Shown in pieces: positions 26,405 through 27,225 of a stretch of 42,689 nucleotides of DNA. A program made the translations under genes and the position numbers. Below the pieces are notes generated by a model, which was not told the DNA's origin, did not search any database, and saw only the letters and a list, made by a program, of their open reading frames with translations. The stretch's first letter is position 1. Every line of letters starts with the position of its first letter. Source of the DNA: a virus (Duplodnaviria; Heunggongvirae; Uroviricota; Caudoviricetes); the IMG/VR virus record IMGVR_UViG_2851938318_000009, positions 1 through 42,689 of that record. One strand, given 5' to 3'.

Positions 26405-26632
26405 ATGTCATCGAAAAACCGGCCCCGCAGAACAACAACCCGCAACATCCGATTTCCAAACCAGATGATTGAACAAATTAACATCGCTCTTGACCAGAAA
26501 GGTTCAGAAAATTTTTCTGCGTGGGTCATTGAATCTTGCCGCCGGGAGCTGGCAGCAGACATAAAATATGCCCGTCAGTTGACTATAAAAAAGAATGATA
26601 CACAGTATGCTCTGCGATGGCTGTTCATATAA
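26405..26632 (+). CDS. putative small DNA-binding protein (ribbon-helix-helix-like), moron
   Basis: 75-aa ORF with GAGGAAAG ribosome-binding site 6 nt upstream; basic N-terminus then RNIRFPNQMIEQINIALDQKGSENFSAWVIESC; opposite strand to the late operon; own terminator downstream. Confidence 0.45.
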   Translation: MSSKNRPRRTTTRNIRFPNQMIEQINIALDQKGSENFSAWVIESCRRELAADIKYARQLTIKKNDTQYALRWLFI

Positions 26633-26764
26633 CTATTTCTTTATATTGCTGAATTTATAAAAAATCACAGACATTAGCTGTATTAATTCCGAATTGAAAT
26701 AATCAGCCATATAGAATAAAAATAAAGCATAACAATAATAATCTTCTACCCAATCAGTACATTA

Positions 26765-26796
26765 CTGCTGTGACTCCAACACGGCAGTTTTTTTAT
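26765..26796 (+). terminator. intrinsic terminator after the 75-aa plus-strand ORF
   Basis: CTGCTGTG-actccaa-CACGGCAG hairpin followed by T9. Confidence 0.55.
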
Positions 26797-27000
26797 TGAA
26801 CAGATTCCAGTTTCTTCCACCATCGCACCGGACGGGCGACCATGAGGGGAGAACGCCGCGCTCCGTTTACGCGGTAAACCCCGGTGTGTATCGTTTTTGA
26901 TTATCCCCGCACACTCTCGCAGAGGAGTCTCCCTGTCGGGCTGCGGTCTCTGTTAATGCAGGAATACGGCGACAATACCGCGCATGGATAATAAGGTCGC

Positions 27001-27225
27001 TCAACACACTGGCTGTAATTCAGCGGATACCATTCGGCATTTATCAGTATTCATCACACACTCAACGGTGAATTCTTCATGCGTGGCATTCACTTCATAT
27101 GTTCGTGAATAACATTCAGTGCATTTACCTCTGAACACCTCTTCAAGCAGAACACGGCCATGTTGCAAAACACGGAACGGAATTGTTCCCTGAAAAGGTT
27201 TTACCGTTACCTGTAATTTCTTCAT
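27001..27225 (-). CDS. hypothetical Cys-containing small protein downstream of Rz
   Basis: 74-aa ORF overlapping the Rz stop by 4 nt; contains CTEC…C…C. Confidence 0.4.
   Translation of the reverse strand: MKKLQVTVKPFQGTIPFRVLQHGRVLLEEVFRGKCTECYSRTYEVNATHEEFTVECVMNTDKCRMVSAELQPVC

Follow-up and report, generated by a model that had tools for sequence, protein, structure and literature searches.

HnrS is a small RNA of prophage origin that relieves the silencing of EHEC and EPEC virulence genes by Hha and H-NS. Poudyal et al. (PLoS Pathog 2026, PMC13502914) describe it from EHEC Sakai as an Hfq-bound sRNA of 66 nt that carries an intrinsic terminator. Three identical copies of its gene are found there, formerly named EcOnc10, EcOnc11 and EcOnc12, in the late regions of prophages Sp9, Sp10 and Sp12. 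According to the same paper, HnrS silences the host regulator Hha; it is complementary over 15 nt to the last codons of mazF, and MazEF toxicity is reported there to be unaffected by it. The 5′ and 3′ ends obtained by dRNA-seq and Term-seq are identical for the three copies, and HnrS is treated as a 66-nt sRNA gene (PMC13502914).

Two protein-coding systems from lambdoid phages are also close to the locus described here. Proteins of the YlcI/YnfO family are encoded by the prophages DLP12 (YlcI) and Qin (YnfO) and, as a 64-aa ORF, by phage lambda. The lambda gene bor, which lies between Rz and cos, is expressed in the lysogen.

We analysed a stretch of 42,689 nucleotides (the window), which represents a lambdoid prophage. 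A segment of 1.9 kb around the interval under study (26405-27225) is 100% identical to the prophage of E. coli O111:H- strain 11128 and to many O111 strains, while several Stx-converting phages are 96-97% identical over the same 1.9 kb. The late genes of the prophage are on the minus strand. The interval is preceded, in late-gene order, by the lysis cassette, and on its other side it is bordered by a packaging module of the HK97 type. All features are listed in Table 1. The HNH endonuclease gene of the packaging module is divergent from the first gene of the interval, orf75, and the two start codons are only 41 bp apart.

A first-pass annotation of this DNA had interpreted the interval as a convergent pair of small genes, orf75 and orf74, inserted between the lysis and packaging modules, with non-coding DNA between them. 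We consider it very likely that the interval is a mosaic junction of four independent parts, at the right end of a lambdoid prophage with HK97-type packaging, and that it has hnrS on board. The region is thus mostly known biology and does not represent a new gene pair.

Table 1. Features at the junction of the lysis and packaging modules. Positions refer to the window, except for the copies in the Sakai genome.
Feature	Position	Strand	Remarks
holin	28947-29222	-	first in late-gene order
YdfR-like gene		-	between holin and lysozyme
lysozyme	28014-28547	-	between YdfR-like gene and Rz
Rz spanin	27222-27740	-	Pfam Phage_lysis, E=9e-50; end of lysis cassette
Rz1	27311-27496		embedded in Rz
orf74	27001-27225	-	74 aa, five Cys; RefSeq "hypothetical protein"
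conserved non-coding element	26806-27000	none	~190 bp, between hnrS and orf74
exchangeable cassette	26540-26805		orf75 tail, AT-rich hnrS promoter region, hnrS and terminator; defined by BLAST breaks
hnrS (EcOnc10/11/12)	~26730-26795	+	66-nt sRNA; ends +/- ~3 nt, 5′ end inferred from published length and promoter-like site
hnrS terminator	26764-26788	+	9-bp stem, then T7 (to 26795)
hnrS promoter candidate	26694-26723	+	sigma-70-like: TTGAAA, 18-nt spacer, AAAAAT; consensus scan
orf75	26405-26632	+	75 aa; ATG at 26405, stop at 26632
HNH endonuclease	25998-26363	-	Pfam HNH and RefSeq; HK97-type packaging module
TerS	25145-25708		followed by TerL; cos-like region between HNH and TerS
hnrS copies in Sakai	NC_002695.2: 1779647-1779712, 1946945-1947010, 2234371-2234436	-, -, +	66/66 matches each

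The gap between the two ORFs comprises 368 bp (26633-27000). The first-pass annotation had given its length correctly as about 370 bp, but the gap is not simply non-coding DNA, as it holds hnrS and a conserved element of ~190 bp. A 66-mer from the gap has exact copies (66/66) in Sakai Sp9, Sp10 and Sp12. It ends with a terminator hairpin, located ~130 nt after the stop codon of orf75, and its predicted fold consists of a single-stranded 5′ seed region of 34 nt, the hairpin and a U7 tail (z = -3.7). The AT-rich block that had been reported with a length of 120 bp was found at 26633-26763 (131 bp) and has a G+C content of 24%, compared to 53% for the whole window. It contains a promoter candidate, the position of which would fit a 66-nt transcript ending in the T-tract. 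The -10 hexamer of this candidate (AAAAAT) is weak.

Based on the copies in Sp9, Sp10 and Sp12, the complementarity to hha and mazF, the length and the terminator, we identify the sRNA in the gap as the published HnrS. As these features match HnrS, the strong terminator that had been assigned to orf75 (hairpin and T7 at 26764-26795) exists but is attributed to hnrS, and the AT-rich block is taken to represent the hnrS promoter and 5′ region. The published Sakai HnrS and the one from the window share all 66 nt and the intrinsic terminator, and both are complementary to the ribosome-binding site of hha and the 3′ end of mazF. In both cases, the sRNA gene has Rz on one side and the ylcI/HNH/TerS genes on the other, and is encoded opposite to the late genes. 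The window differs from Sakai in that the host of the prophage is of O111 type, that an extra gene (orf74) occurs between Rz and the conserved element, and that hnrS is known here from its sequence.

The supplement of Tree et al. 2014 (PMC4104026) gives coordinates for EcOnc10-12. These are offset by ~125-132 nt from the 66-nt copies in NC_002695.2 and, when taken at face value, they correspond to non-identical sequences in the three Sakai prophages, so that a coordinate shift is needed. We infer that the offset is due to a change of the version of the Sakai record. Two other sRNAs were considered as the identity of the candidate and were rejected: Esr41, because it is encoded in SpLE1, and PasA-D, because these are located near the Q and holin genes. 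Rfam scans over 26300-27300, at the gathering threshold and with permissive settings, gave no real family match, and no Rfam family matches HnrS.

The two published complementarities are found in the window copy. Nucleotides 17-31 of hnrS (CTACCCAATCAGTAC) are perfectly antisense to the 3′-terminal 15 nt of K-12 mazF (nt 322-336 of 336). Nucleotides 8-22 pair with hha from position -10 to +4, including CUUCUACC / GGUAGAAG, and this covers the ribosome-binding site AGAAG. The duplex with hha has an energy of -12.1 kcal/mol, which was surpassed by 29 of 500 shuffled seeds, a modest specificity.

The hnrS cassette occurs in one tenth of the complete E. coli genomes (543 of 5426), with a median of 2 and a maximum of 5 copies per genome, and its sequence identity is at least 99% in all genomes but one. 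Among the genomes listed, most are O157:H7 or other EHEC, and thus the distribution agrees with the published one. The cassette is never annotated in these genomes. As HnrS is unannotated in RefSeq, a reading of the sequence by itself mistakes hnrS for a spacer followed by a terminator.

A diverged variant of hnrS exists (L190, 4558-4952; L147, 303-366), in which the hha-pairing seed AACAAUAAUAAUCUUCUACCC is kept while the mazF-complementary stretch is changed. In L190, an IS21-like insertion occurs between hnrS and the conserved element. We also noticed an exact 9-nt repeat (GCCATATAG) that is found upstream of the orf75 start (26375-26383) and in the hnrS promoter region (26706-26714). It was not considered meaningful, as we estimate that chance alone would yield ~0.8 such repeats in a region this large.

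The mosaic structure became evident from comparison with related loci. In most of these, BLAST homology ends at 26539/26559 and resumes at 26799/26806. At least nine alternative, unrelated cassettes occupy the position of 26540-26805 in other phages. The gene orf74 was found beside at least nine different cassettes, including a lambda-type cos, and in Sakai Sp9, Sp10 and Sp12 orf75, hnrS and the conserved element are present while orf74 is absent. Judged from this distribution, orf74 is linked to neither ylcI nor hnrS, and the proposal that orf75 and orf74 form a convergent pair had to be abandoned. For hnrS and the ylcI allele represented by orf75, the result is different. In 19 of 20 hnrS copies from the fetched loci, this ylcI allele is directly upstream on the same strand, and a ylcI-hnrS unit that has diverged to 83% identity retains both genes. 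Co-occurrence thus indicates that this ylcI allele and hnrS are tightly linked.

That the interval is at a typical moron position is correct insofar as conserved small genes are found at a site of cassette exchange between the lysis and packaging modules. The classical description of a moron applies to the hnrS cassette, which has a promoter-like site and a terminator and is within the exchangeable segment. It does not apply to orf74, whose start overlaps the stop codon of Rz and for which neither a separate promoter nor a separate terminator is present; being probably coupled to Rz, it is no autonomous moron.

The 75-aa ORF on the plus strand with its own ribosome-binding site was recovered as described, with a GAGG Shine-Dalgarno sequence 7 nt upstream of the ATG. 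It matches Pfam DUF3950 (PF13132; E=3e-17, 62.6 bits with a cutoff of 25), NCBIfam YlcI_YnfO_N (NF041551; 39.2 bits with a curated cutoff of 30) and phrog_949, and is labelled "YlcI/YnfO family protein" in RefSeq. It had been stated that the two ORFs have no obvious phage function. For orf75 this does not hold, as it is a member of a named family, YlcI/YnfO (DUF3950), which is also found in lambda. In 658 clusters of orf75 homologues, residues 1-50 are nearly invariant (consensus MSxKNRxRRTTTRNIRFPNQMIEQINIALDQKGSGNFSAWVIEACRRRL). From residue ~47-52 onwards, the sequences are allele-specific, and the C-terminal tails are mutually unrelated. With a dN/dS of ~0.06 for residues 1-47, purifying selection on the N-terminal domain is very strong, and together with the RefSeq annotation this indicates that orf75 is a genuine gene and not a chance ORF. 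A mosaic breakpoint lies within orf75 at 26539-26559, at about codons 46-52. Thus, the DUF3950 domain is fused to differing C-terminal tails, depending on the cassette that follows.

The N-terminal domain of ~50 residues is probably a ribbon-helix-helix (RHH) DNA-binding dimer. This likeness is weakly supported by structure prediction, as the closest structural matches of the predicted monomer are the RHH antitoxins MazE6, TacA and Rv0298. There is also a weak match to a HicB-like PHROG (E=0.04). PDB searches with orf75, as single sequence and as profile, gave no match, and a BLASTP comparison of orf75 with Arc was not significant. RHH repressors and antitoxins (Arc, Mnt, CopG, MazE6-N, TacA) differ from orf75 in that their sequences are not significantly similar to it and in that no partner toxin is found at orf75.

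YlcI of DLP12, YnfO of Qin and the 64-aa ORF of lambda have the same N-terminal domain of ~50 residues as orf75, are likewise opposed to the late genes and are likewise located beside the start of the packaging module. They differ in the C-terminal tail (in orf75: AADIKYARQLTIKKNDTQYALRWLFI), and the allele in the window is followed by hnrS. In addition, the neighbour of orf75 is an HNH/HK97-type terminase, while that of the lambda ORF is Nu1 and cos. In K-12, DLP12 carries the same gene as ylcI, divergent from nohD, and orf75 has 85% nucleotide identity to it over 141 nt. In lambda DNA, the final ORF before the right cos end has 64 aa, is identical to K-12 YlcI and is opposed to the late genes. 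From these occurrences, YlcI is seen to be a widespread, cos-adjacent gene of lambdoid phages.

YlcI matches were also obtained from unrelated taxa (Streptomyces, Pseudomonas, Cohnella, Flavobacterium and MAGs), mostly 190-390 nt from contig ends. The contigs have a size of ~48.4-48.5 kb or ~3.5 kb and carry lambda Rz, Rz1 and Bor. Because of this gene content, we attribute them to lambda control DNA that was left in the assemblies. It was in these lambda-derived contigs that lambda itself was seen to encode the 64-aa YlcI beside cos.

The second ORF, orf74, is present on the minus strand after Rz with 74 aa and five Cys, in agreement with the first-pass annotation. The ATG of orf74 shares nucleotides with the stop codon of Rz (ATGA) and is preceded by a GGAGGA Shine-Dalgarno sequence. 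The overlap suggests that orf74 is translationally coupled to Rz and represents the last cistron of the late/lysis operon. A dN/dS of ~0.28 reveals purifying selection and, together with the RefSeq annotation, indicates that orf74 is also a genuine gene rather than a chance ORF. The family is small, with 22 clusters in a set of 5.8 billion proteins and 42 representatives among 1.84 billion proteins; those members that are named come from E. coli and Salmonella. Conservation is found in the N-terminal half. Cys35 is the only invariant Cys, and this disfavours a zinc-binding motif. AlphaFold gave a confident all-beta sandwich (pLDDT 88) with generic structural neighbours (Z up to 6.9), among them hemocyanin C-terminal domains, PNGase F, a domain of lambda gpJ and carbohydrate-binding modules. 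The predicted product of orf74 is a small beta-sandwich protein of the cytoplasm. No match was found for it in Pfam or NCBIfam.

Relative to Sakai Sp9, Sp10 and Sp12, the segment 26986-27258, which comprises orf74 and the end of Rz, is an insertion or a replacement. The lambda bor locus occupies the same niche as orf74 and, in 933W-like and lambda-like phages, adjoins the same conserved element. In contrast to bor, orf74 belongs to the late strand and is coupled to Rz by start overlap; it lacks a signal peptide and a lipobox, and the two sequences are unrelated. A Bor-like lipoprotein was rejected as identity of orf74, as its N-terminus (MKKLQVTVKPFQG) lacks a hydrophobic segment and a lipobox and as there is no match to the Bor family. 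We regard orf74 as an optional insertion at a position that is taken by bor or rha in other phages.

The non-coding element between hnrS and orf74 is more strongly conserved than the adjacent gene: over one set of 40 sequence variants, mean identity is 96.6% for the element and 84% for the 5′ part of orf74. It has two invariant blocks, TTTCTTCCACCAYCGCACCGG and CCCGGTGTGYATCGTTTTTRATTATYCCCGCACACTC, separated by a variable stretch with small hairpins. The element occurs in 398 phage records that differ in packaging type, with identities down to ~77%, and variable cassettes are found on both of its sides. In 933W-like and lambda-like phages, where orf74 is absent, a bor or rha-like gene is located between Rz and the element, and the element is upstream of bor. 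Fold z-scores of the element are ~0 on both strands. RNAalifold gave weak energies and unfavourable covariation and thus no convincing consensus RNA fold for either strand. The element has no consistent ORF, the longest open frame varying between variants, and the label "Rz-like spanin" (phrog_6954) was rejected since it rests solely on sporadic ORF calls. Our best guess is that the element is a conserved DNA segment with a module-boundary or regulatory role. Among the possibilities are a "linker" at the module boundary and a regulatory region upstream of bor-type genes. It could also be a functional cis element instead of neutral DNA, for instance a linker for recombination by which cassette exchange is driven, or a promoter/leader of bor-type genes.

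A possible scenario can be proposed for the plus-strand genes. Both orf75 and hnrS point against the late operon, and this suggests that they are expressed in the lysogen. HnrS would be transcribed from the promoter candidate in the AT-rich block, ~100 nt downstream of orf75, and would end at the hairpin and U7. Its action on Hha would lead, as published for Sakai, to reduced Hha-H-NS silencing of acquired genes, e.g. of the LEE and of prophage genes. One extension of this scenario is that the ylcI allele and hnrS form a co-inherited unit of lysogenic conversion, in which the RHH-like YlcI controls hnrS or its own promoter, or shares a transcript with hnrS, and that the conserved element has a separate function in cis. 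We regard this extension as unlikely. If true, a conserved phage regulator from the vicinity of cos, which is present in lambda itself, would be tied to the counter-silencing of Hha/H-NS.

The same linkage could have another reason. HnrS might be processed from the 3′UTR of the orf75 (ylcI) mRNA, so that both belong to one unit with a shared promoter upstream of 26405. The two are on the same strand with ~97 nt between the orf75 stop codon and the 5′ end of the sRNA, this ylcI allele precedes 19 of 20 hnrS copies, even the unit diverged to 83% identity keeps the linkage, and the predicted -10 hexamer of hnrS is weak. However, the ends determined by dRNA-seq and Term-seq are the same in three copies, and HnrS is treated as a 66-nt sRNA gene (PMC13502914). 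Furthermore, the -35 sequence TTGAAA is kept in the diverged variant, and the variant from L147 lacks an upstream ylcI. We thus judge processing from the ylcI mRNA to be quite improbable.

Even less credit can be given to a convergent two-gene moron, in which orf75 transcription stops at the terminator and a non-coding spacer separates orf75 from orf74. The geometry is indeed as described, and the hnrS terminator, being the first plus-strand terminator after orf75, could stop read-through from this gene. This model, which we consider very unlikely, is nevertheless largely refuted by the co-occurrence data, as the three Sakai prophages keep orf75, hnrS and the element without orf74, and as orf74 is found beside many other cassettes. 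The presence of hnrS and the conserved element in the supposed spacer and the coupling of orf74 to Rz by start overlap, which argues against autonomy, also speak against it. The structural matches to RHH antitoxins, the weak HicB-like match and the complementarity of HnrS to mazF could be taken as signs of a type II toxin-antitoxin or abortive-infection pair, with orf75 as its RHH antitoxin and a toxin nearby. This is hardly credible, because there is no co-oriented ORF beside orf75, with the sRNA downstream and the divergent HNH gene upstream. In addition, PADLOC gave no match, the gene occurs alone beside cos in lambda and DLP12, and MazEF toxicity is reported to be unaffected by HnrS (PMC13502914).

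The mosaic junction with hnrS on board, which we prefer, leaves the current understanding unchanged. It adds as context that hnrS belongs to an exchangeable cassette joined to a ylcI allele at the 3′ end of the latter, and it draws attention to a strongly conserved non-coding element where the lysis and packaging modules meet. Two small proteins that are uncharacterised are set apart from each other, namely orf74 and YlcI, the latter being ubiquitous in lambdoid phages, lambda included.

Some additional observations were made in other parts of the window. The interval between HNH and TerS has five GTTAAC(AT) motifs at 25785-25905, two of which form a palindrome. These may be terminase-binding repeats of the cos region. 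Rfam matches were obtained for a convergent AgvB/STnc100 sRNA pair at 31601-31853 and for DicF at 36570-36621. The IS3-type ALIL frameshift pseudoknot was matched by Rfam in two inverted copies (32569-32685 and 38565-38681), which are ~6 kb apart and represent two IS copies.
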